Notes under the pieces: generated by a model
Database searches by the model: none
What the model was told of the DNA's origin: nothing
The model's input: only the letters and a program-made list of their open reading frames with translations
Position numbers and translations under genes: made by a program
Source of the DNA: Bacilli bacterium
Lineage (GTDB): Bacteria > Bacillota_I > Bacilli_A > RF39 > UBA660
Reading direction: 5' to 3'
Assembly (NCBI GenBank): GCA_017460175.1
Contig: JAFUBO010000005.1
Location: 21,082-85,081, forward strand
DNA length: 64,000 nt
Shown: positions 11,200-50,337 of the stretch, one piece after another
Numbering within the stretch: position 1 is the first letter of the stretch
Layout of the letters: every line of letters starts with the position of its first letter

Positions 11200-11276
11200 G
11201 GGCGATTAGCTCAGTTGGTTAGAGCACTTGCCTTACAAGCAAGGGGTCACAGGTTCGAGTCCTGTATCGCCCACCA
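11200..11276 (+). tRNA. tRNA-Val (anticodon TAC)
   Basis: Cloverleaf read by hand: gggcgat acceptor, anticodon loop cttacaa, CCA encoded. Confidence 0.85.
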
Positions 11277-11282
11277 TGATGT

Positions 11283-11358
<76 letters not shown>

Positions 11359-11365
11359 TTTTTTT

Positions 11366-11450
11366 GGAGAGGTAGCGAAGAGGCTAAACGCGACAGACTG
11401 TAAATCTGTTCTCATTGAGTTCGATGGTTCGAATCCATCTCTCTCCACCA
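11366..11450 (+). tRNA. tRNA-Tyr (anticodon GTA)
   Basis: Long variable arm, anticodon loop ctgtaaa, CCA encoded. Confidence 0.8.
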
Positions 11451-11461
11451 CTTATGTTTAT

Positions 11462-11536
11462 TGCCTCGTAGCCAAGTGGTAAGGCATCAGACTTTGACTC
11501 TGACATGCGTTAGTTCGAATCTAACCGAGGCAGCCA
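11462..11536 (+). tRNA. tRNA-Gln (anticodon TTG)
   Basis: tgcctcg/cgaggca acceptor stem, anticodon loop ctttgac, CCA encoded. Confidence 0.75.
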
Positions 11537-11547
11537 TTTATTTATAT

Positions 11548-11623
11548 GATCTGTTAGCTCAGTTGGTAGAGCATTTGACTTTTAATCAAAGGGTCATGAG
11601 TTCGAATCTCATACAGGTCACCA
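11548..11623 (+). tRNA. tRNA-Lys (anticodon TTT)
   Basis: Anticodon loop cttttaa, TpsiC arm ggttcgaatc, CCA encoded. Confidence 0.85.
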
Positions 11624-11629
11624 TTTTGT

Positions 11630-11718
11630 GCCTGAGTGGCGGAATTGGTAGACGCACAGGACTTAAAATCCTGCGAGAATCAACCCTCGTGCCGGTTCAA
11701 GTCCGGCCTTAGGCACCA
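11630..11718 (+). tRNA. tRNA-Leu (anticodon TAA)
   Basis: Long variable arm, anticodon loop cttaaaa, CCA encoded. Confidence 0.8.
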
Positions 11719-11755
11719 TTTTAAAAATTTGCCTATTACTTAGTAATAGGTTTTT

Positions 11756-11848
11756 GGAGGAATACCCAAGTCTGGTTGAAGGGACCGGTCTTGAAAACCG
11801 GGAGGTCGTGCAAGCGGCGCAGGGGTTCGAATCCCTTTTCCTCCGCCA
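11756..11848 (+). tRNA. tRNA-Ser (anticodon TGA)
   Basis: Long variable arm, anticodon loop cttgaaa, CCA encoded. Confidence 0.8.
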
Positions 11849-11863
11849 TTTATTACTTACATC

Positions 11864-11939
<76 letters not shown>

Positions 11940-11947
11940 ATTTGTAT

Positions 11948-12024
11948 GGTTCCTTGGTGCAGCTGGTTAACACGTCTGCCTGTCACGCAGAAGATCGCGG
12001 GTTCGAGTCCCGTAGGAACCGCCA
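11948..12024 (+). tRNA. tRNA-Asp (anticodon GTC)
   Basis: Anticodon loop ctgtcac, CCA encoded. Confidence 0.8.
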
Positions 12025-12028
12025 TTAT

Positions 12029-12104
12029 GGCTTCATAGCTCAGTCGGTAGAGCAAGGGACTGAAAATCCCTGTGTCGCTGGTTCGATTCCCGCTGGAGCC
12101 ACCA
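12029..12104 (+). tRNA. tRNA-Phe (anticodon GAA)
   Basis: Anticodon loop ctgaaaa, CCA encoded. Confidence 0.85.
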
Positions 12105-12154
12105 TTTTATTAGACATATATATACAAATATAAAGTAGCTGAACAACATGTCTT

Positions 12155-12231
12155 GCGCTCGTAGCTCAGTTGGATAGAGTGTTTGGCTACGAACCAAAAG
12201 GTCAGGGGTTCGAATCCCTTCGAGCGCACCA
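12155..12231 (+). tRNA. tRNA-Arg (anticodon ACG)
   Basis: Anticodon loop ctacgaa, CCA encoded. Confidence 0.85.
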
Positions 12232-12234
12232 GTT

Positions 12235-12311
12235 CGGGAAGTGGCTCAACTTGGTAGAGCACTTGGTTTGGGACCAAGGGGTTGCAGGTTCAAATCCTGT
12301 CTTCCCGACCA
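12235..12311 (+). tRNA. tRNA-Pro (anticodon TGG)
   Basis: Anticodon loop tttggga, CCA encoded. Confidence 0.85.
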
Positions 12312-15286: not shown

Positions 15287-15745
15287 ATGAAATATATAAA
15301 GGTAATGTTAGTAGGATTACTAGCTCTTATAGGTGTTGGTTATCGTAGCTTTGCTGCTGAAACGGATACTAATTTAAAAGGCGGTATATACTATGATAAT
15401 ATAGAGTATACTGATAACGTAGTTTTTAATGGTGTTGATGGTGTTAATTTAGATTATAATGCTTCTTTTACAACTCCTGGCGAATATTATGAATTATACT
15501 TTGATATAGTCAACTCTACTAAGTATGATATAGAAATATCCGAATATCTATGTAATGATGATGATAGACATATAGATTATGAATTAGTTTATGAAGATGG
15601 TTCTATGATTAATACTGGTGATATTATAGAAAAAGGTCAATCTAAAAGAATAAAATATAGAGTTTTATATAAAGAAGCTATTAAACAAGAAGAAGATTAT
15701 AAATTTGACACAAGTTTTTCAATATTGTATGAACAAGTAATGTAA
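15287..15745 (+). CDS. secreted protein, distant paralog of the TasA/camelysin-like family in this window (Sec-type signal peptide)
   Basis: Signal peptide with an AxA-like FAA|E cleavage site. The core (TTPGEYYELYFDIVNSTKYDIEI ... YELVYEDGSMINTGDIIEKGQSKRIKYRVLYKE) follows the same pattern as 19588, 20997 and 48987. Confidence 0.45.
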   Translation: MKYIKVMLVGLLALIGVGYRSFAAETDTNLKGGIYYDNIEYTDNVVFNGVDGVNLDYNASFTTPGEYYELYFDIVNSTKYDIEISEYLCNDDDRHIDYELVYEDGSMINTGDIIEKGQSKRIKYRVLYKEAIKQEEDYKFDTSFSILYEQVM

Positions 15746-15933: not shown

Positions 15934-16290
15934 ATGGAAAAAGTATGTTTAAGTGAATTAAATAAGGAAGTACAAGAAAAGATTTTAGGGGCAGGTTATG
16001 ATTTAGGTGAATATGATAATTCAAATAATTGCGTTATATTACCATTTGGAGGACTTGAATCATTAAGATGTTTTGTGGGTGGTATGCAAGATAAAAAGAC
16101 TATCTACGTATGTAATTCAAAAAATTATTATAAAGGAATTATTGATCAAATAAAAGATATGGCTGATAACGGAGTTATAAATATTAGCTTTGGAGAAGAT
16201 ATTATTGTCGAAGATAGTATTGATAATATAATTGCAAGAATGGAGGAAAAGAAAAATGCTAACAATGGAGAAAATAGTAAATTATTGTAA
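15934..16290 (+). CDS. hypothetical 118-aa protein, first gene of the T-box-glyS transcript
   Basis: ATG at 15934, 6 nt after the taaggagg RBS and directly after the T-box terminator. Its 3' end overlaps the glyS start by about 35 nt. No family recognised. Confidence 0.45.
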   Translation: MEKVCLSELNKEVQEKILGAGYDLGEYDNSNNCVILPFGGLESLRCFVGGMQDKKTIYVCNSKNYYKGIIDQIKDMADNGVINISFGEDIIVEDSIDNIIARMEEKKNANNGENSKLL

Positions 16291-17629
16291 GCAATATGGA
16301 TTTATATTTCAAGGATCAGAAATATATGGTGGTCTTTCTAATTCATGGGATTATGGACCGCTTGGAAGAGAATTAAAAGAAAATATAAAAAAAGCTTGGT
16401 GGAAAAAATTTATCCAAGAAGAAAAAAATAGTTATGGATTAGATGCAGCTATTATAATGAATCCAGAAGTTTGGGTGGCATCAGGTCATGTTGCTAGCTT
16501 TGCTGATCCTTTAATAGATTGTAAGAGTTGTAAATCAAGACATCGTGCTGATAAACTAATAGAAGATTTTACAGAAGGAAAAGAAACTGGCGACGGATGG
16601 GCAAATGATAAGTTAGAAAAATATATTAGTGATAATAAGATAGTTTGTCCTAAATGTGGAAAAAGTGATTTTACTGGTATTCGTCAATTTAATTTATTAT
16701 TTGAGACGCATATTGGTGTTACTGAAGATTCAGCATCTAAAGTATATCTAAGAGGAGAAACTGCTCAAGGAATATTTGTTAATTTCAATAATGTTTTAAG
16801 AAGTCAAAGAGCTAAAGTTCCTTTTGGTATAGGTCAAATAGGTAAGGCTTTTAGAAATGAAATTACTCCAGGTAACTTTATTTTTAGAACTCGTGAGTTT
16901 GAACAAATGGAATATGAATTTTTCTGTAAACCTGATACTGATTTAGAGTGGCATGCATATTTTAAACAAAAATGTTTGGATTTCTTAAAAGAAATAGGGA
17001 TAAAAGAAGAAAATTTAAGATATAGAGATCATGCTAAGGAAGAATTAGCTTTCTATAGTAAAGCTACAACTGATATTGAATATAAATACCCAATGGGTTG
17101 GGGAGAATTATGGGGAATAGCTGATAGAACTGATTATGATTTATCTGTTCATCAAGATCATTCTAAAACTGAGTTAAAATACTTAGATCCAGAAACAAAT
17201 GAAAAATATGTTCCTTATGTTATTGAACCTAGTGTTGGTGTTGATAGATTATTATTATCAGTATTATGTGATGCTTATGAGGAAGAAGAAATATCTGATG
17301 GAGATGTAAGAGAAGTTTTACATATTGATTCTAGATTGGCTCCATATAAAGTGTGTGTATTACCTTTAGCTAAGAAGTATCACGGTGATAAGGCTACAGA
17401 AATTTACAATGAACTTTCTAAATACTTTATGACTAGTTATGATGAATCTGGAAGTATTGGAAAACGTTATAGAAGAAATGATGCTATTGGTACTCCATGG
17501 TGTATTACTGTAGATGATGAAACTATAAATAATGGTACTGTTACGGTTAGAGATAGAGATACTATGGAACAAATAACTTTAAAATTAGATGAAGTTGTTA
17601 ATTATGTAGAAGAAAGAATTAAATTTTAA
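16256..17629 (+). CDS. glyQS: glycine--tRNA ligase (dimeric class II, GlyQS type)
   Basis: IV.YCKQ.GF.F.GSEIYGG.....DYGPLG and FRNEITP/FRTREFEQME class II motifs. ATG at 16256 lies 10 nt after ggagg. Confidence 0.9.
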   Translation: MLTMEKIVNYCKQYGFIFQGSEIYGGLSNSWDYGPLGRELKENIKKAWWKKFIQEEKNSYGLDAAIIMNPEVWVASGHVASFADPLIDCKSCKSRHRADKLIEDFTEGKETGDGWANDKLEKYISDNKIVCPKCGKSDFTGIRQFNLLFETHIGVTEDSASKVYLRGETAQGIFVNFNNVLRSQRAKVPFGIGQIGKAFRNEITPGNFIFRTREFEQMEYEFFCKPDTDLEWHAYFKQKCLDFLKEIGIKEENLRYRDHAKEELAFYSKATTDIEYKYPMGWGELWGIADRTDYDLSVHQDHSKTELKYLDPETNEKYVPYVIEPSVGVDRLLLSVLCDAYEEEEISDGDVREVLHIDSRLAPYKVCVLPLAKKYHGDKATEIYNELSKYFMTSYDESGSIGKRYRRNDAIGTPWCITVDDETINNGTVTVRDRDTMEQITLKLDEVVNYVEERIKF

Positions 17630-19587: not shown

Positions 19588-20136
19588 ATGAAGATAAAAT
19601 GGATGAAGTATAATAGAAAAAAAGTATTCATGTTCTTATCTCTTTTTTTGATATTATTTGGATTAACTTTTGGATATGCATCATTGACTACTAAAATTTC
19701 AATAGATGGTATTTCTAATGTAAAGGATGCTAAATGGAGTTTAAAATTTGATAATTTTAGTTCTATAGATGGTAGTGTTAGTCCATTGGAAGAACCAATA
19801 ATTGCAGATACAAGTGTGACTTTTTCAGCTAAAGTAAATGAACCAGGTGATTTTTATGGATTTACAGTGGATGTAGTAAATGAAGGAACAATAAATGCAA
19901 AAATAGGCAGTATTTCAATAACTCCTGATTTTTCAAATATAGATTATATAGATTCATTTATTGAATATTATGATGGTACTCCTATTTCGGTTAGTGATAC
20001 TTTAGATGCAGGAGAAACTAAAAAAATAAAAGTTTATTTAAAATATAAAGAAGGAATAGATGAGGATTTGTATCCAACAGAAAATCAACAGTTTCCTGTA
20101 ACAATTTCCCTAAAATATATTCAAGATATTAGCTAA
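19588..20136 (+). CDS. TasA/camelysin-like secreted protein with SipW-cognate-type N-terminal signal (paralog 1)
   Basis: N-terminus: basic stretch, TM helix, then GYASLTTKISIDG. Compare the TasA/CalY GTFAYFSD motif. The core EPGDFYGFTVDVVNEGTINAKI resembles the TasA PGDKLTKDFQFENNGSLAIK stretch. Ends ...YDGTPISVSDTLDAGETKKIKVYLKYKEG. Confidence 0.55.
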   Translation: MKIKWMKYNRKKVFMFLSLFLILFGLTFGYASLTTKISIDGISNVKDAKWSLKFDNFSSIDGSVSPLEEPIIADTSVTFSAKVNEPGDFYGFTVDVVNEGTINAKIGSISITPDFSNIDYIDSFIEYYDGTPISVSDTLDAGETKKIKVYLKYKEGIDEDLYPTENQQFPVTISLKYIQDIS

Positions 20137-20996: not shown

Positions 20997-21731
20997 ATGG
21001 AAAATCAAGAACAAGTTTATAATAAACAAAAAAAAGGAAAAGATAAAAAAACAATAGTATTAATGGTTTTGTTACTATTATTAGTAACAGTAACAATAGG
21101 GTATGCAATATTATCTACAACAATAAAAATTAATGGGTCATCTACAATTCAACCAATTGCGAAATGGTGTATAGGTCCAAAGTGTGCGATTGAAGGTCAA
21201 GATGAATGTACTGATATTTCTAGTTGTAGTAATCCACCTGTGGAATGTCCAGCAAACGAAAAGTGTACAATTTTAGATTGTGATGCTAATCCAAATTCAT
21301 GTGATAATATTCCTGATCCAGAATATTGTGAAGATCAAAATAATTGTGATACAGGTTCTGTAATTTGGATGGAAGGAGATACAATTTATTTTAAACATAT
21401 TTTAGCTAAACCAGGGGATACTTTTATATTTTATGTTAAATATAATAATGGTGGTAATATAGATGCAAAGGTTAAAGATGTAGCTAAAAGTGCTTTAAAT
21501 GCTACTGCTCAAAGGTTTATGACTTATGATGTTACATATAACGATGGTAGTACTATTTCTCAAAATGATATATTAGCTGCAGGTGAAACTGCGATATTTA
21601 AAGTAACTGTAACATATAAATCTACTATTACAACTTTACCAACTGATGCGGAAATTGCACTTATAAATGAAATAGAAGATGGTCATACAGGTGCTACTTC
21701 ATTATTTACAGTTAATTATGAACAAAAGTGA
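20997..21731 (+). CDS. TasA/camelysin-like secreted protein with a 60-aa cysteine-rich insert (paralog 2)
   Basis: Same N-terminal motif (TIGYAILSTTIKINGSSTI), then a 10-Cys low-complexity module, then the KPGDTFIFYVKYNNGGNIDAKV and YDVTYNDGSTISQNDILAAGETAIFKVTVTYK core. Confidence 0.55.
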   Translation: MENQEQVYNKQKKGKDKKTIVLMVLLLLLVTVTIGYAILSTTIKINGSSTIQPIAKWCIGPKCAIEGQDECTDISSCSNPPVECPANEKCTILDCDANPNSCDNIPDPEYCEDQNNCDTGSVIWMEGDTIYFKHILAKPGDTFIFYVKYNNGGNIDAKVKDVAKSALNATAQRFMTYDVTYNDGSTISQNDILAAGETAIFKVTVTYKSTITTLPTDAEIALINEIEDGHTGATSLFTVNYEQK

Positions 21732-21783
21732 GACTAGATTTCTAGCCTTTTTTTTGTATAATAAAACGCAATTAGGTGATTTT

Positions 21784-22692
21784 ATGACTAAAAAAGAACT
21801 TCAAAAACTTATTGAATATACTAGTATAAGTGGTGGTTTAAATAATAATTTTTGTAATTATTCTAAATTATATAGTATGACTACTGAAAATATATATGGT
21901 TTTTTAAGTAAATATAATTTAAAAAATAAAAAAATTTTAACAGTAGCAGGTAGCGGAGATCAAAGATTAAATTGTTATTCTTTAGGAGCAGATGAGGTTA
22001 CTTGTTTTGATATTAATTTATTAAGTCATTTTCAATTACAATTAAAGGATGAAGCAATTAAACATTTAAATTATAATGAGTTCTTGGATTTTTTTGGTAT
22101 TATAAGAGACAATACTAATAATTTTTTAAAAGATGATTTGTTTGATAAAATTAAAGTTTATTTAAACGATGATGTATATGGTTTTTATAATTTTTTAATT
22201 AATGAATTTAGAAGAGATCCGTTAAGAAATATTTATTATGATTTTGATAATGATTTAAAATTAATAAAAAAAATAAATCATTATATTAATGAAGATAATT
22301 ATTATGATTTGTCACATTCGCTTAATAATAAGCAAAATATGTTTATTGAAGCTAATGTTGATAATTTACCTGAAATCTTAGATGGTGAGAAGTTTGATAT
22401 GATTTTGTTATCTAATATTAGTGATTACATACATTATATTTATAGTGATAATAACTTAGAAAGATATAGAGAATTAATTGATAAATTAATAGGTAATTTA
22501 AATTTATATGGAATTATTCAAGTTGGTTATATTTATTCTAGATATAGTAAGGGTGAAGATGTCAGTAAGTTTCATTTTAATGAAATTAGAAATAAGGTAT
22601 TTCCAAATGATATTTTTCATAGTATATTTGTAGATTCTTATTATAATGATGGTACATATGATAAAGTAATTACTTATCAAAAATTAAAATAG
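21784..22692 (+). CDS. hypothetical protein with possible Rossmann SAM-methyltransferase-like motif
   Basis: ATG at 21784 follows aggtga. The track ORF begins further upstream, overlapping the previous gene. ILTVAGSGDQ resembles MTase motif I and CFDIN resembles motif II. Weak evidence. Confidence 0.4.
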   Translation: MTKKELQKLIEYTSISGGLNNNFCNYSKLYSMTTENIYGFLSKYNLKNKKILTVAGSGDQRLNCYSLGADEVTCFDINLLSHFQLQLKDEAIKHLNYNEFLDFFGIIRDNTNNFLKDDLFDKIKVYLNDDVYGFYNFLINEFRRDPLRNIYYDFDNDLKLIKKINHYINEDNYYDLSHSLNNKQNMFIEANVDNLPEILDGEKFDMILLSNISDYIHYIYSDNNLERYRELIDKLIGNLNLYGIIQVGYIYSRYSKGEDVSKFHFNEIRNKVFPNDIFHSIFVDSYYNDGTYDKVITYQKLK

Positions 22693-30425: not shown

Positions 30426-30655
30426 TATAATTTGTGTATCAACGGGGATATAGGAGTAGTAATAAATGATTTATTAAAAGAGAGAGTATGGTTGGTGAAA
30501 ATACTTAATAATAATTTATGAATTCGCCTATGGAGTTCTTATTAATAATAAGCGTAATTCTTGCGTTAAAAGAATAGAGAGTATAGTAATAACTATAAAA
30601 TAAGGTGGTACCGCGAGAAATCGTCCTTATATTTTATAGTTATTTTTTTTGGAGG
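30398..30655 (+). promoter_or_regulatory. promoter (TTGTAA-17-TGaTATAAT) plus T-box riboswitch leader of pheST (Phe specifier) with terminator
   Basis: T-box core aaGGTGGTACCGCGag near 30602-30617. Terminator aactataaaata ... tattttatagtt followed by T8 at about 30586-30655. A TTC codon lies within gaattcgcc, the candidate specifier. Confidence 0.7.
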
Positions 30656-30661
30656 TATTTT

Positions 30662-31711
30662 ATGGAAAATAAAAAAATATTAGAAGTAAAGGAATTAATG
30701 AAGAATGATTTAGTTGATTCTATTGATATGAATGAATTAAATGATTTAAAAGTTAAATATTTAGGTAAAAAAGGTCTTATTACAGAACTTAATAGTGAAA
30801 TTAAGAATATTCCAAATGAAGGAAAGAAAGAATTTGGAATGTTAGTAAATGAGTTAAGAAATGAGTTTAATAATTATTATGATTCTACTAAAGAAAAACT
30901 AGATAGTATAGAATTAAATAAGAAATTAGAAAGTGAAACAGTAGATATTACTCTTCCAAGTACTAAGGTTAAATTAGGTGCTCCTCATATATTAGAAAAA
31001 GTAATAGAAGAAGTAGAGGATGTATTTATGTCTATGGGGTATGATGTAGTAGATGGACCTGAAATAGAGGAAGATAAATATAATTTTGAAATGTTAAATA
31101 TACCTAAAGGACACCCTGCAAGGGATGCTCAAGATACTTTCTATATTGAAGGTGAGGAAATACTTCTTCGTAGTCAAACAAGTCCTGTTCAAGTTAGAAC
31201 TATGTTAAAAGGAGAAGGTAAGACTCCAATTAGAATGATTTGTCCAGGTAAGACATATAGAAGAGATGATGATGATGCATCTCATTCACATCAATTTATG
31301 CAAATTGAAGGATTACTTGTTGATAAAGATATTAGTTTATCTGATTTAAAAGGTACTATGGATGTTTTATTTAAAAGATTATTTGGACAAAATATAGAAA
31401 CTCGTTTTAGACCAAGTTATTATCAATTTACAGAGCCATCTGTAGAAGTAGATATTACATGTGTTAATTGTCATGGAAAAGGATGTAATGTATGTAAGAA
31501 TAGTGGTTGGGTTACTGTAGTAGGAGCTGGTGTAGTTCACCCTAATGTACTTAGAATGAGTGGATATGATCCAGAAGTATGGAGTGGATTTGCTTTTGGA
31601 TTTGGTGCAGAACGTCTTGCGATGATGAAATATGATATTAATGATATAAGAACTTTCTATAATGCAGATTTAAGAGAAGTACATACATTTGATAGGGAGG
31701 ATGAAGAATAA
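30662..31711 (+). CDS. pheS: phenylalanine--tRNA ligase alpha subunit
   Basis: Class II motifs (GHPARD, FRPSYYQFTEPS, GFAFGFGAERLAM) plus the zinc-ribbon insert CVNCHGKGCNVCK seen in Bacillus PheS. ATG at 30662 follows ggagg. Confidence 0.9.
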   Translation: MENKKILEVKELMKNDLVDSIDMNELNDLKVKYLGKKGLITELNSEIKNIPNEGKKEFGMLVNELRNEFNNYYDSTKEKLDSIELNKKLESETVDITLPSTKVKLGAPHILEKVIEEVEDVFMSMGYDVVDGPEIEEDKYNFEMLNIPKGHPARDAQDTFYIEGEEILLRSQTSPVQVRTMLKGEGKTPIRMICPGKTYRRDDDDASHSHQFMQIEGLLVDKDISLSDLKGTMDVLFKRLFGQNIETRFRPSYYQFTEPSVEVDITCVNCHGKGCNVCKNSGWVTVVGAGVVHPNVLRMSGYDPEVWSGFAFGFGAERLAMMKYDINDIRTFYNADLREVHTFDREDEE

Positions 31712-34074
31712 TGATAAGTTTAAATTGGGTAAAAGATTATATAGATATAGAAGATCAAGATGTTTATGAACTTGCTACAAAAATTACTAAAGCCGGAATT
31801 AATATTGAAAATGTTTATACTAAAAAAATTGATAATTTAGTAATTGGTGAAGTTATAGAATGTGTTGATCATCCTGATAGTGATCATTTACATGTTTGTA
31901 AGGTTAATATTGGAGAAGATGTTCTACAAATAGTTTGTGGAGCCCATAATGTACGTGAAGGAATCAAAGTAATAGTAGCTAAAGTAGGGGCTGTATTACC
32001 AGGTAATTTTGAAATTAAACAAAGTAAGATTCGTGGTGTAGAATCATCAGGTATGATCTGTGCATTATTTGAATTAGGTTTAGAAGAGAAGACTGAAGAA
32101 AACTATAATAAAGGAATAGAAGAGTTAAATAGTGATGCTCCAGTTGGAGAAGATCCTATTACTTATTTAGGACTTGATGATACCTTATATGATTTAGATA
32201 TTCATAAACATCGTAATAATGATTGTTATTATCATATTGGATTTGCTTATGAAATAGCTTGTATTTTAAATAGAAAGGTAACTTTACCAAGTTTAGAGTA
32301 TAGTCCAATTGATGATAAAATTAAATTTAATTTAGAGGTGGAAACTCCTAAATGTAGTTATTATGTTGCACGTGAAGTTAGAAATATAAAAATTGGAGAA
32401 AGTCCAGATTTTATCAAAAAAAGATTAATTGCTGCTGGTATGAGACCAATTAATAATGTAGTAGATATTTCTAATTATGTAATGTTAGAGTTTGGTCAAC
32501 CACTTCATTTCTTTGATAGAGATAAATTAGGTGACACTATTGTTGTAAGAGATGCTAAAGAAAATGAAAAGATTACTACTTTAGATGGAAAGGAAAGAAC
32601 TCTTGATTCTAATGATATAGTTATTACTGATGGTAAGAAACCTGTATGTATTGCTGGAGTTATGGGTGGAGAAAATACTGAAGTAGATCTTAATACTAAA
32701 AATATTTTAATTGAAGCTGCTATATTTGATCCTGTTAGTATTAGATATACTGCTCGCAAATTAGAATTACCTAGTGAAGCAAGTATTCGTTATGGTAAAG
32801 GACTTTCTTTTGAATATACAGAAATGGCTAGTAGACGTGCTTGTCACTTACTAGAAAAATATGCGGATGCAGAAGTAGTAGATAGTTTTGTATTGGTAGA
32901 TAATGAGGATCATGCTGAGAAAATATTGGAATTTGTGCCAAGTGATGTTGATAAGATACTTGGTATAACTATTTCAGAAGATGATATGAAAAATGAACTT
33001 GATAGATTAGATTTTCCATATGAATTAAAGAATGGTAAATTTATTGTAACTATTCCAAGAAGAAGATTAGATATTGATGCTAATGTTAATGATATTGCTG
33101 AAGAAATTGGAAGACTTTTTGGTTATAATAACTTAGTAAGTTCACTTCCTTCTGTAGAAATTAGACGTGGTGAATATATTGGTGATGTTAAATATCGTAA
33201 GATGGTATCAAAGAGGCTTCGTAGTTTAGGATTAAATGAAGTAAAGACTTATACTTTAGTAAATCCTCTAATGGCTAGTAAGTTTATTTATGAAGATAGA
33301 AAGCCAGTTGTTTTACCAAATCCAATGAGTGTAGATAAGAGCGTAGTTAGAACTACATTAATTCCATCACTTATGAATGTATATGAGTATAATAAAGATA
33401 GAGGAGTTAAAGATATTTCTATTTATGAAATAGCTAAGACTTATGATGTTAATTATTTAGAAACAACTAAAGTATGTGGATTAATGACTGGAAACTATTT
33501 AACAAGTAGTTGGAGGGAAAATGTTAAAATTGATTTCTTTGTAGTTAAAGGTATTGTAGAAGATTTGTTAGATTTTATGGGTTATAATGGACGTTATTCA
33601 TTTGTAAGAAGTGAATGCGATGATCTTCATCCTGGAGTACAAGCAAATATTATTTTAGATGGTAAAGTAATAGGAATACTTGGTAAAGTTCATCCATCAA
33701 TACTTAAGAAAGATGTATTTGTATTTGAATTAAATTTAGATAGTATTTATGGAAAAACTAGTAAATTAAAATATAAAGAAGCATTTAAATATCCAAGTAT
33801 TTCTAAAGATATGGCTTATGCATTAGATAGAAATATATTAGTTAGTGATGTTATTAAAACTATTAAAAAAGCATCTAGTAAGATTCTACAAGATGTAGAA
33901 GTGTTTGATATATATGAAGGTGAAAATATTGATTCTAATAAGAAAAGTGTTGCTTTTAAATTAATATTTAATGGAATTGATAGAACATTAACTGATGAAG
34001 AAGTAATGATAGATTTCAATAAAATAATTGACAAAGTAGTGTCAAGTTTCAATGCTGAATTAAGAGATAAGTAA
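31711..34074 (+). CDS. pheT: phenylalanine--tRNA ligase beta subunit
   Basis: 787 aa. MISLNWVKDYIDI, the tRNA-binding domain, and B3/4, B5 and FDX-ACB-like regions. Start overlaps the pheS stop (ATGA). Confidence 0.9.
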   Translation: MISLNWVKDYIDIEDQDVYELATKITKAGINIENVYTKKIDNLVIGEVIECVDHPDSDHLHVCKVNIGEDVLQIVCGAHNVREGIKVIVAKVGAVLPGNFEIKQSKIRGVESSGMICALFELGLEEKTEENYNKGIEELNSDAPVGEDPITYLGLDDTLYDLDIHKHRNNDCYYHIGFAYEIACILNRKVTLPSLEYSPIDDKIKFNLEVETPKCSYYVAREVRNIKIGESPDFIKKRLIAAGMRPINNVVDISNYVMLEFGQPLHFFDRDKLGDTIVVRDAKENEKITTLDGKERTLDSNDIVITDGKKPVCIAGVMGGENTEVDLNTKNILIEAAIFDPVSIRYTARKLELPSEASIRYGKGLSFEYTEMASRRACHLLEKYADAEVVDSFVLVDNEDHAEKILEFVPSDVDKILGITISEDDMKNELDRLDFPYELKNGKFIVTIPRRRLDIDANVNDIAEEIGRLFGYNNLVSSLPSVEIRRGEYIGDVKYRKMVSKRLRSLGLNEVKTYTLVNPLMASKFIYEDRKPVVLPNPMSVDKSVVRTTLIPSLMNVYEYNKDRGVKDISIYEIAKTYDVNYLETTKVCGLMTGNYLTSSWRENVKIDFFVVKGIVEDLLDFMGYNGRYSFVRSECDDLHPGVQANIILDGKVIGILGKVHPSILKKDVFVFELNLDSIYGKTSKLKYKEAFKYPSISKDMAYALDRNILVSDVIKTIKKASSKILQDVEVFDIYEGENIDSNKKSVAFKLIFNGIDRTLTDEEVMIDFNKIIDKVVSSFNAELRDK

Positions 34075-47669: not shown

Positions 47670-48056
47670 ATGGGTGAATTTATCAGAAGACTTATACGTT
47701 GGATTATTTTTATAATTATTGTTGTGCTATTTATATTACTAATCATAAAACTTGCTAATAAGAATAATACTACTAAAAAAACAAAAAGGGTTTTAAATAC
47801 AGGTGTTGAGAAAATAAAAAAAGAAAAGAATAAATTTAGTAATGACAAAAAAAGTAAAAAGAATATAAATAGTAATTCTACAAAAGATAATAAAGAAACA
47901 ATAAATAAAGATAATGATAGTAATAATATTGTTACTTCAACATTAGAAGTAAATACTCCAGATACTGGTACAGATAGTTACTTATATATATTAGGTGTTG
48001 CAGTAATTAGTAGTGGAGTATATTATATTTACAAAAACAGAGAATTAAGTAATTAA
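47670..48056 (+). CDS. small Lys-rich surface protein with N-terminal TM/signal and C-terminal PxTG-like sorting signal (TPDTG + TM + KNRELSN)
   Basis: RBS gtaggaggg. C-terminus NTPDTGTDSYLYILGVAVISSGVYYIYKNRELSN. Confidence 0.45.
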   Translation: MGEFIRRLIRWIIFIIIVVLFILLIIKLANKNNTTKKTKRVLNTGVEKIKKEKNKFSNDKKSKKNINSNSTKDNKETINKDNDSNNIVTSTLEVNTPDTGTDSYLYILGVAVISSGVYYIYKNRELSN

Positions 48057-48986: not shown

Positions 48987-50297
48987 TTGATATTTTTTAA
49001 TAATCTATTTGATAAAATAGTAATAGGTGGTAGTATGAAAAACAAGAAAAAAAATAGATATTTATTTTTGTTTTTACTTTTATTGGGAATAAGTGTAGGA
49101 TATGCTTTTTTATCAACAACATTAAAAATAAATGGAACGACAAATATTACAAAACAATCATGGAATGTTTATTGGGATAATGTAGAGGTTTCGAGTGGTA
49201 GTATAAGTCAGAATTTGCCAATTATTACACAAAACCAAGGAGATCAAGTAAATACAAAAATATCATGGAATGTAACATTAACTAAGCCAAAAGATTTTTA
49301 TGAATTTACAGTTGATGCGGTGAATGCAGGTTCAATTGATGCGATGATAACAAATATAGATAATAGTATTTCTCCAGAATTACCAAGTTATATTAAATAT
49401 TATGTAACATATGCAGATGGAATAGTTCCAGAAGAAAAACATTTACTAGCGAAAAAGATTGGAAATACACCATCTAGAGAAAAATATAAAATTAGAGTAG
49501 AATTTAGTGATGATATTACAAGAGAAGAATTTGATAGTATTCCTTCTACTGCGCTTTCATTTACATTTGATTATAATGTTACTTATTCTCAAGCAAGTAA
49601 TGAGGCTATTAATATGAAAACTTGGATATTACCAGAGGGTAAAGAAGTATCAACATTACAAGTAGGAGATGAATTATGTTATAGAGGGCAATGCTTCAAT
49701 TTTATAAAGTATGATGGTGATAATATAGTAATGCTTGCAAAATATAATTTGAAGGTTGGAAAGAATTTTACTAATAGTGGGATTGAAACAAGTGAATATA
49801 AAATTAATGATCCTTTATATGGCTTACAAAGTCCAGATTCAAGAGGTTATATAGATGGAGCTAGTAATTATAATGGTCAAGTACAATTTTCTCAATTAAA
49901 TTATTGGCAAAATACAGGATTATCATATCCTAGTTATATTTATGATTCTATAAATAAGAAAGGTATTTCGGGTACAAATAATTATTCAATAGCTTATTAT
50001 GTAGAATTGTATAAAAATAATTTAGAAAATATAGGTGTTGATGTAGAAAGTGCAAGATTGTTAAATTATAATGATGTAATAGATAATAGTATAGGATGTT
50101 CTTACGGAACAGATAATTGTCCAACAGAAGGGAATCTTTCATTTATAACAAATACATCATTCTGGATTGGTTCAGCATTTTCTGATTATACTGTGTGTGT
50201 TATAAATTCAAATGGTTATTTTGTTTCTACTGGTTGGAATTCTTATGGAGGATGGGGAGTACGTCCGGTTATAGAAGTAAATAAAAATAATATTTAA
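48987..50297 (+). CDS. TasA/camelysin-like secreted protein (paralog 3) with ~250-aa C-terminal extension
   Basis: N-terminal ...LGISVGYAFLSTTLKINGTTNI has the same motif as 19588 and 20997. Core KPKDFYEFTVDAVNAGSIDAMI. The long C-terminal region is rich in Tyr/Asn/Gly. Confidence 0.55.
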   Translation: MIFFNNLFDKIVIGGSMKNKKKNRYLFLFLLLLGISVGYAFLSTTLKINGTTNITKQSWNVYWDNVEVSSGSISQNLPIITQNQGDQVNTKISWNVTLTKPKDFYEFTVDAVNAGSIDAMITNIDNSISPELPSYIKYYVTYADGIVPEEKHLLAKKIGNTPSREKYKIRVEFSDDITREEFDSIPSTALSFTFDYNVTYSQASNEAINMKTWILPEGKEVSTLQVGDELCYRGQCFNFIKYDGDNIVMLAKYNLKVGKNFTNSGIETSEYKINDPLYGLQSPDSRGYIDGASNYNGQVQFSQLNYWQNTGLSYPSYIYDSINKKGISGTNNYSIAYYVELYKNNLENIGVDVESARLLNYNDVIDNSIGCSYGTDNCPTEGNLSFITNTSFWIGSAFSDYTVCVINSNGYFVSTGWNSYGGWGVRPVIEVNKNNI

Positions 50298-50308: not shown

Positions 50309-50337
50309 AAATCTTTGGATAATCCAAAGATTTTTTT
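50309..50337 (+). terminator. rho-independent terminator
   Basis: aaatctttgg-ataat-ccaaagattt followed by T7. Confidence 0.65.

Follow-up and report, generated by a model that had tools for sequence, protein, structure and literature searches.

Candidate donor-strand fibre proteins of the TasA/AbpX type, and a linked signal peptidase-DUF5305 pair, in uncultured gut and rumen Bacilli

Introduction

Donor-strand complementation underlies the TasA, AbpA, AbpX, Tafi and thread filaments, and the TasA fibre is formed by donor-strand exchange (PDB 8AUR, 5OF1). In the literature that we searched, DUF5305 proteins are described solely in connection with donor-strand filaments of the TasA superfamily. 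Here we describe four paralogous genes from a 64-kb stretch of DNA, the window, taken from contig JAFUBO010000005.1 of a Bacilli bacterium (25.2% GC, with nearly all genes on the + strand). The same window encodes a signal peptidase I and a DUF5305 protein. We refer to genes by their start positions in the window: 15287, 19588, 20997 and 48987 for the paralogs, 17773 for the peptidase and 18932 for the DUF5305 protein. We put at roughly 55% the probability that the four paralogs encode TasA/AbpX-like donor-strand fibre subunits or decorations that are processed by 17773 and 18932.

The closest described system is that of AbpX. Besides a signal peptidase I with ten transmembrane (TM) segments and an accessory DUF5305 protein, AbpX loci, both archaeal and bacterial, encode minor subunits and tip proteins of varied structure (bioRxiv 10.64898/2026.01.04.697558). 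The donor strand of the acidic AbpX subunits is a 16-residue N-terminal extension, unstructured while the subunit is a monomer, that contributes W2, E4, L6, L8, A10 and I12 (10.64898/2026.01.04.697558). In Haloarcula, processing of the fimbrial subunit TafA depends on TafD, a peptidase dedicated to it, and TafG belongs to the DUF5305 proteins (PMC11821415). Membership of the TasA superfamily sensu Sleutel et al. corresponds to an HHpred or HHsearch probability of ~80-95% to an established member.

Results

Four true paralogs in one window

The open reading frames (ORFs) 15287, 19588, 20997 and 48987 are all present on the + strand. In phmmer comparisons with the window's own ORFs, 48987 matched 19588 (E 4e-21) and 20997 (5e-12), 19588 matched 20997 (5e-14), and 15287 matched 19588 (8e-11) and 20997 (2e-6). 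A profile of 269 family sequences matched exactly these four among the window's 240 stop-to-stop reading frames of at least 50 amino acids (aa) in six frames, with E values of 2e-64, 5e-57, 3e-39 and 2.5e-30, the value for 48987 being 5e-57. It is beyond doubt that the four are homologous, true paralogs, as an earlier sequence-only reading of the window had proposed. Their likeness is positional, not compositional: the columns G-Y, W, P-G-D, N-x-G, Y-x-D-G and Y-x-Q are invariant or nearly so. The worry raised by that reading, that the similarity might be merely compositional, can be set aside.

In 19588, 20997 and 48987 the motif G-Y-A-x-L-[ST]-T directly follows a basic, hydrophobic N-terminus. 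A scan of the window's six-frame translation for G[YFWT][AS]x[LFIM][ST][TDS] returned three occurrences, in just these three genes, to which the motif had been assigned before. 15287 had been described as having the same core with an ordinary AxA signal, and this is what we see: it shares the sandwich core, but GVGYRSFA/AETD (here and below, a slash marks the cut site) replaces the motif and the strand that follows is absent. The predicted mature forms of all four proteins are acidic, with an isoelectric point (pI) of 4.1-4.6 and 11-22% Asp plus Glu (D+E). 19588, the candidate major subunit, is the next gene downstream of the peptidase-DUF5305 pair. The Cys-rich insert reported earlier in 20997 is also there, with its ten Cys residues (Table 1). 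An ORF at 21679-22692 (+) overlaps the 3' end of 20997 by 53 nucleotides (nt); its real start is probably an internal ATG. The analysis supports the view that the genes are paralogs that have diversified and that their products are secreted or lie at the surface.

A conserved candidate signal peptidase site followed by a conserved extension

Column statistics were taken over the 269 sequences, which are non-redundant. The sequences open with a basic n-region (median 5 K/R) and a hydrophobic core that varies, after which comes a conserved G-[YF]-[AS], with G at -3 in 90%, Y or F at -2 in 92% and A or S at -1 in 93% of sequences relative to the proposed cut. Having G at -3 and A or S at -1, the site fits that of a type I signal peptidase. 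It is followed by x-[LI]-[ST]-[TS]-x-L(80%)-x-I(82%)-x-G(91%), an extension segment conserved more strongly than the hydrophobic core before it, and then by W(89%)-D-[VI]-[HY]-F-x-N(84%) and the sandwich motif P-G-D-[FY]-Y-x-F-x-V-D-V-x-N(97%)-x-G-[TS]. The beta-sandwich of each protein is acidic and spans ~135 residues. In P0010, a metagenomic relative of 480 aa, a single signal and degenerate motif precede three tandem sandwiches, each of which begins W-[DE]-V-x-F-x-N and ends Y-[VI]-Q; a single extension serving three sandwiches indicates that the extension is an element separate from the sandwich.

The predicted structure of 19588 (pLDDT 83) is an eight-strand sandwich in which the conserved extension is disordered. 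Structure prediction had been suggested as a check for a TasA jelly roll. A sandwich is indeed predicted, but Foldseek found no match to the 19588 model in the PDB at E<1e-3.

Two other kinds of pilin were considered and rejected. A type IV pilin (class III) signal, in which a short basic leader and the prepilin peptidase site G/[FAM]-x-x-x-E come ahead of the hydrophobic helix, does not fit: the hydrophobic segment is not preceded by a conserved Gly, Glu is missing at +5, and the conserved site lies after the helix. Nor does a sortase-assembled pilin: a C-terminal LPXTG-type sorting signal was found in none of 157 retrieved relatives and in none of the four window proteins.

A multi-TM signal peptidase and a DUF5305 protein beside the family

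Hydropathy analysis predicts that 17773 has ~8-9 N-terminal TM segments ahead of its catalytic domain and one hydrophobic segment at the C-terminus. The catalytic domain is of the endoplasmic reticulum (ER)/archaeal type, with SNSMSP at 283, HRI at 324 and GDAN at 342. Against the SipW equivalog model it scored 58 bits (cut-off 190), so it is not a SipW equivalog; it would be the dedicated peptidase of the family. 18932 is a short form with two TM helices that matches only positions 117-217, the C-terminal part, of the DUF5305 profile. By analogy it is presumed to be an accessory subunit of the peptidase. Distant loci encode DUF5305 versions of ~360 aa, for example L048:10802-11899 and L061:2878-3948.

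The gene order is 17773, 18932, 19588, with 20997 one gene further on. We compared it with 65 related loci from reference genomes, retrieved with a 7-sequence alignment, several of which share one metagenome-assembled genome (MAG). About 20 of the 65 have the arrangement [short member]-[multi-TM::signal peptidase I]-[DUF5305]-[further members, often long]. The window shares the peptidase-DUF5305-19588 part, and the remaining loci carry family genes without a peptidase. This distribution suggests one processing operon with dispersed substrates, 48987 being among the dispersed. Orthologs of the 15287 type, recognised by the signature GIYYD[NH]V.Y.DNV, stand beside the peptidase operon in five loci (L001, L003, L004, L005 and L009). 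In the window, a glycyl-tRNA synthetase gene (16232-17629) separates 15287 from the peptidase, and homologs of this synthetase occur in six related loci.

The proteins had been proposed to be processed by SipW. A SipW-like (TIGR02228) peptidase two genes upstream of 19588, its linkage in about 20 of 65 loci and the fit of the cleavage site all agree with this proposal, whereas the score against the SipW equivalog does not. We conclude that a SipW-like peptidase probably processes the proteins and that they probably act in fibres or at the surface.

Profile comparisons with AbpX and TasA

When a 45-sequence profile of module-only members was searched against the PDB (177,635 sequences), the two best matches were both AbpX (9sj2_C, E 0.085; 9rhp_A, E 0.13). 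Family and AbpX align collinearly over ~110 positions, PG...N.GTI.A among them. Comparison by hhalign, here and below without secondary structure, gave 61% probability to the AbpX fragment (P 8e-5). Using this fragment (residues 49-160) as the seed for a homolog search gave no relatives. The corresponding probabilities for two TasA alignments were 36% and 60%, the latter for a 111-sequence alignment (P 9e-5). In the alignment, the family motif PGD-x(5,6)-F-x-[VF]-x-N-x-G-[ST] falls on TasA KPGDKLTKDFQFENNGSL, and the spacing to the PGD motif is the same 32-33 residues in the family and in the TasA register.

None of the four window proteins matched PF12389 (TasA/camelysin, Peptidase_M73) or the NCBIfam SipW-substrate models at E<=1. 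Sub-threshold PF12389 matches occur in relatives (one of 77 at 5.6e-4; two of 45, best E 7.6e-3). The label 'TasA-like family' given by the sequence-only reading therefore does not stand: PF12389 is not reached, the TasA motif GGGTWA/AFND is absent and the profile-profile probabilities are 36-60%. We also found no support for the accompanying suggestion of spore appendages, since nothing links the family to sporulation. The deacetylase that neighbours 48987 scored 84 bits against the YlxY cut-off of 391. The peptidase-DUF5305 architecture, together with AbpX as the best PDB matches, makes the AbpX type the closest placement; we are probably dealing with a new, very large family that belongs to the TasA superfamily or stands next to it.

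A large, unannotated family of gut and rumen Bacilli

Family size was determined by an exhaustive profile search; an earlier word-indexed homolog search had given only nine relatives. At E<=1e-3 the search returned 7,692 cluster representatives, and 1,700 remain at E<=1e-30. The four window proteins, searched singly and as a 4-sequence profile, had no meaningful sequence match in Pfam, NCBIfam or the PDB. The family is so far unannotated, and its N-terminal module has no Pfam family. This module of ~180 aa is placed at the extreme N-terminus, beginning within the first ~20 residues in the best 150 matches. Among the 157 retrieved relatives, 25 (16%) consist of the module alone (<=215 aa) and 132 (~84%) have C-terminal extensions of up to 1,639 aa; related loci contain ORFs of up to ~3,500 aa. 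The passenger domains include DUF6273 (10 of 77 family members scanned), DUF285, Flg_new (Listeria-Bacteroides repeats), ricin lectins, Pmp repeats, leucine-rich repeats (LRR), Big_2 and ALK/LTK glycine-rich domains.

All 65 related loci come from MAGs of rumen, gut or similar samples. The loci are labelled Bacilli, Erysipelotrichaceae, Bacillales or Tenericutes, except for two labelled Muribaculaceae. The hosts are uncultured low-GC gut and rumen Bacilli.

48987 joins the module to a lectin-like domain

The sequence-only reading had started 48987 at the TTG codon that gives the gene its name here. The true start is likely to be the ATG at 49035, which has GGTGG 6 nt upstream and from which public assemblies call a 420-aa product; the TTG would lengthen the product by 16 residues. 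Cleavage would follow A24, and the candidate donor-strand residues of the predicted mature protein are then L2, T4, L6, I8 and G10. In the structure model (overall pLDDT 84.6) the extension forms a strand at residues 30-40 with lower pLDDT.

The C-terminus had been described as a 250-aa extension rich in Tyr, Asn and Gly. The extension is real but is not a mere compositional tail: the last ~215-230 aa are predicted to be a confidently folded alpha/beta domain (pLDDT mostly 85-97) that is common to many homologs. At least 26 of the retrieved relatives contain it, four of them as tandem copies, and its conserved features are two Cys pairs, [FY]-W and a terminal G-V-R-P-V-I. A fold search with the domain returned proteins of the CTLD (C-type-lectin-like domain)/FGE-like fold. 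On this modelled fold the domain is C-type-lectin-like and presumably binds a ligand or glycan. It has no Pfam match, and searching the PDB with a profile of the full 48987-type alignment brought up no relative of it by sequence. DUF6273 (PF19789), which the pattern 'W...GVRPVI' brought up as a candidate for this domain, is unsupported: 48987 gave no match at E<=1, nor did any of ten close relatives of the domain at E<=0.01.

Table 1. Positions in the window of the family genes, the peptidase-DUF5305 pair and the predicted parts of their products
Feature	Position	Strand	Evidence or remarks
Paralog 15287, 152 aa, extension-less	15287..15745	+	Ordinary signal ..SFA/AE
Signal peptidase I, 382 aa	17773..18921	+	TIGR02228, 75.1 bits (cut-off 51.85)
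DUF5305 protein, 205 aa	18932..19549	+	PF17231, E 3.7e-11, 43.3 bits (cut-off 29)
Short paralog 19588, 182 aa, module alone	19588..20136	+	Predicted signal 1-31 (..FGYA), extension 32-47, sandwich 50-179
Paralog 20997, 244 aa	20997..21731	+	Motif TIGYA/ILSTTIKING
Cys insert of 20997, 60 residues, 10 Cys	21168..21347 (residues 58-117)	+	Between first strand and remaining sandwich
Gene 48987, 420-aa product	49035..50297	+	N-terminal pilin-like module and C-terminal lectin-like domain
Predicted signal peptide of 48987, MKNKKKNRYLFLFLLLLGISVGYA	49035..49106	+	Basic n-region, hydrophobic core, G-Y-A end (G at -3, A at -1); helix 8-26 in model
Conserved amphipathic N-terminal extension of 48987, FLSTTLKINGTTNITK, candidate donor strand	49107..49154	+	Column conservation; analogy with AbpX
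Beta-sandwich core of 48987, W43 to Q186	49161..49592	+	Motifs W-x-V-x-[FW]-x-N, P-[GK]-D-F-Y-x-F-x-V-D-x-V-N-x-G-[ST]-I-D-A, Y-x-D-G, Y-x-Q
C-terminal alpha/beta domain of 48987, predicted C-type-lectin-like fold	49647..50294	+	C-x(2,3)-C-F, G-C...C, [FY]-W, terminal G-V-R-P-V-I
Terminator-like hairpin, 11-bp stem and T-run	50309..50333	+	Directly after the 48987 stop codon

A promoter scan was uninformative, giving 32 sites against 28.6 expected in DNA of 25% GC. Two genes upstream of 48987, 47670-48056 (+) encodes a Lys/Asn-rich protein of 128 aa with an N-terminal TM helix and a C-terminal 'TPDTG' followed by a hydrophobic stretch and a basic tail (TIGR01167 LPXTG anchor, 16.9 bits, cut-off 15.9). 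It has no homology to the family and might be a wall-anchored partner. Elsewhere in the window, 12 tRNA genes stand in a row at 11200-12311 (+; Val, Thr, Tyr, Gln, Lys, Leu, Ser, Met, Asp, Phe, Arg, Pro), and a T-box leader at 30436-30631 (+; 115.9 bits, gathering score 93) lies upstream of, and slightly overlaps, ORF 30605-31711, which is followed by ORF 31711-34074.

Discussion

We propose that the family proteins are exported by Sec and cut after G-Y-A by the multi-TM ER-type peptidase 17773 with its DUF5305 partner 18932. The freed N-terminal strand would then be donated to the sandwich of a neighbouring subunit. Module-only subunits of the 19588 type would build the fibre, on which passenger-bearing subunits would be displayed, 48987 presenting its C-type-lectin-like domain. 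Lacking the extension, the 15287 type could take up a strand but would have none to give, and may be a cap or tip. Cleavage, strand exchange, polymerisation and ligand binding or adhesin function are thus the steps that we would predict for this system.

Several observations weigh against the proposed fibre. With the best AbpX match at E 0.085, the family has no significant sequence match to any characterised filament protein, and the HH probabilities to AbpX and TasA (36-61%) lie below the 80-95% of the literature. The candidate donor strand differs from that of AbpX in lacking aromatic and acidic residues: among 148 relatives with the motif, mature position 2 is L, I or V in 143 (97%) and F in three, and position 4 is T or S in 120 and D or E in four (<3% acidic). 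An aliphatic position 2 and T/S at position 4 imply that the aromatic clamp and the calcium ligand of AbpX and TasA are absent, and from these residues calcium-dependent clamping is not expected. In the hhalign comparison, the TasA cleavage/donor region falls on the family's first sandwich strand, W-D-V-H-F-x-N, and not on the extension; in that register the family carries ~21 extra N-terminal residues. The 48987 model pairs the extension in cis as a hairpin, and judging from such models the extension could simply be the domain's first edge strand. We identified no cell-anchoring component. 48987 itself is flanked by a polysaccharide deacetylase gene and smc, and lies 31 kb from the peptidase.

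The alternative that we take most seriously, while considering it unlikely, is an uncleaved signal-anchor. The N-terminal helix would stay in the membrane, the strand and sandwich would form a monomeric stalk that displays the C-terminal domains, and 17773 would process some members only, or other substrates. Such an anchor would explain cell retention where no relative has a sortase signal. It would suit a module that is always N-terminal and is fused to adhesin-like passengers of up to >3,000 aa. The in cis pairing of the conserved strand in the 48987 model, the unusually basic n-region (median 5 K/R) and the dispersal of most paralogs away from the peptidase are also in its favour. However, the conserved G-[YF]-[AS] places small residues at -3 and -1, as is typical of cleaved type I signals, and the conserved linkage to signal peptidase I and DUF5305 is a pairing otherwise known from processed filament subunits. 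A paralog that lacks the extension and has an ordinary cleavable signal is also conserved, and a bare stalk would have no obvious use in the 16% of relatives that are module-only, of which one usually stands beside the peptidase.

Less probable still is a monomeric, immunoglobulin-like carrier, in which the signal is cleaved and the module has only a folding or spacing function, or binds the wall non-covalently as sandwiches of the WxL-interacting or CARDB/DUF11 type do. Weak Pfam matches to DUF11, CARDB, fn3 and DUF4352 point this way, as does one member that matches WxLIP_PGBD at 3e-4. This reading leaves the peptidase-DUF5305 operon, the conserved amphipathic strand and the extension-less paralog unexplained, and four different donor-strand filament families are among the best neighbours in sequence and structure. 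That the proteins are genuine TasA/camelysin (PF12389), SipW-dependent biofilm-matrix or spore-coat-associated proteins, is very improbable: the shared PGD...N-x-G-[ST] motif, hhalign values of up to 60%, rare weak PF12389 matches in relatives and the adjacent ER-type peptidase are outweighed by the lack of any PF12389 or SipW-substrate match at E<=1 in the four window proteins, the different signal/donor motif, the missing helical insertions and tail, a module of ~135 rather than ~230 aa, a peptidase at 58 rather than 190 bits and the lack of a link to sporulation.

If the donor-strand fibre is real, an unannotated family with thousands of clusters would gain a testable function. The module would be the pilin or anchor by which poorly known gut and rumen Bacilli display adhesins, and many 'hypothetical proteins' would become host- or glycan-binding candidates tied to a single processing peptidase. 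The TasA superfamily would be extended to host-associated bacteria, with a donor strand that lacks the aromatic/acidic signature and with direct pilin-adhesin fusions. More tentatively, and with more doubt than confidence, we suggest that this is the main surface-display system of an uncultured, small-genome lineage of gut and rumen Bacilli. It would comprise a TasA/AbpX-related fibre with directly fused passengers, one 10-TM peptidase-DUF5305 complex, a calcium-independent donor strand without an aromatic clamp and an extension-less cap. In thousands of protein clusters, the passengers would be dozens of adhesin, lectin, LRR, Pmp-repeat and enzyme-like domains. Such a system would be a Gram-positive counterpart of chaperone-usher tip-adhesin display, without sortase or chaperone. 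Should the helix prove to be an uncleaved anchor, the family would still be a widespread N-terminal display module worth naming.

Among known systems, AbpX offers the most points of likeness. Like AbpX, the family has a small, acidic beta-sandwich and an amphipathic N-terminal extension of ~16 residues after a type I signal, and in both the extension is unstructured or of low confidence in monomer models. AbpX has a pI of about 4 and roughly 15% D+E, close to the pI of 4.1-4.6 of the window proteins. Both systems combine a multi-TM TIGR02228 signal peptidase I (about 10 TM, here by hydropathy) with DUF5305, additional minor subunits and bigger tip proteins. Unlike AbpX, most family members are directly fused to large passenger domains, and the DUF5305 protein of the window is short and lacks an extracellular domain. 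The family's hosts are uncultured gut and rumen Bacilli, whereas AbpX-type systems are those of Pyrodictium abyssi and of AbpX-like loci in bacteria and archaea.

Tafi (9P0A) likewise pairs a dedicated signal peptidase with DUF5305, and there TafD is experimentally required for processing. Tafi, the thread (Saci_0406, 7PNB) and the AbpA bundling pilus (7UEG) are archaeal, and Tafi uses twin-arginine translocation (Tat) signals. None of the three has detectable sequence similarity to the family, and none has passenger fusions this diverse.

The TasA/TapA/SipW system of B. subtilis resembles the window in having an ER-type peptidase gene beside its substrates, an N-terminal strand right after the cleavage site, the PGD...N.G[ST] motif and a beta-sandwich core. 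It differs in the motif at the site, which in the family is G-[YF]-[AS]/x-[LI]-[ST]-T-x-L-x-I-x-G and in TasA is G-G-G-T-[WF]-A/[AY]-F-[NS]-D. The family module also lacks the helical insertions and C-terminal tail of TasA, and the window peptidase has ~8 TM helices more than SipW. We saw no TapA homolog.

For the C-terminal domain of 48987, the closest known domains of the CTLD/FGE fold include the N-terminal domain of the Thomasclavelia ramosa IgA peptidase (9QA6), the C-terminal domain of Legionella Lcl (8Q4E) and the variable proteins TvpA and Mtd of diversity-generating retroelements. The 48987 domain shares no sequence similarity with 9QA6 or other bacterial CTLD/FGE-fold domains. In T. 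ramosa the domain is part of a sortase-anchored protease, whereas in 48987 it stands C-terminal to a pilin-like module.

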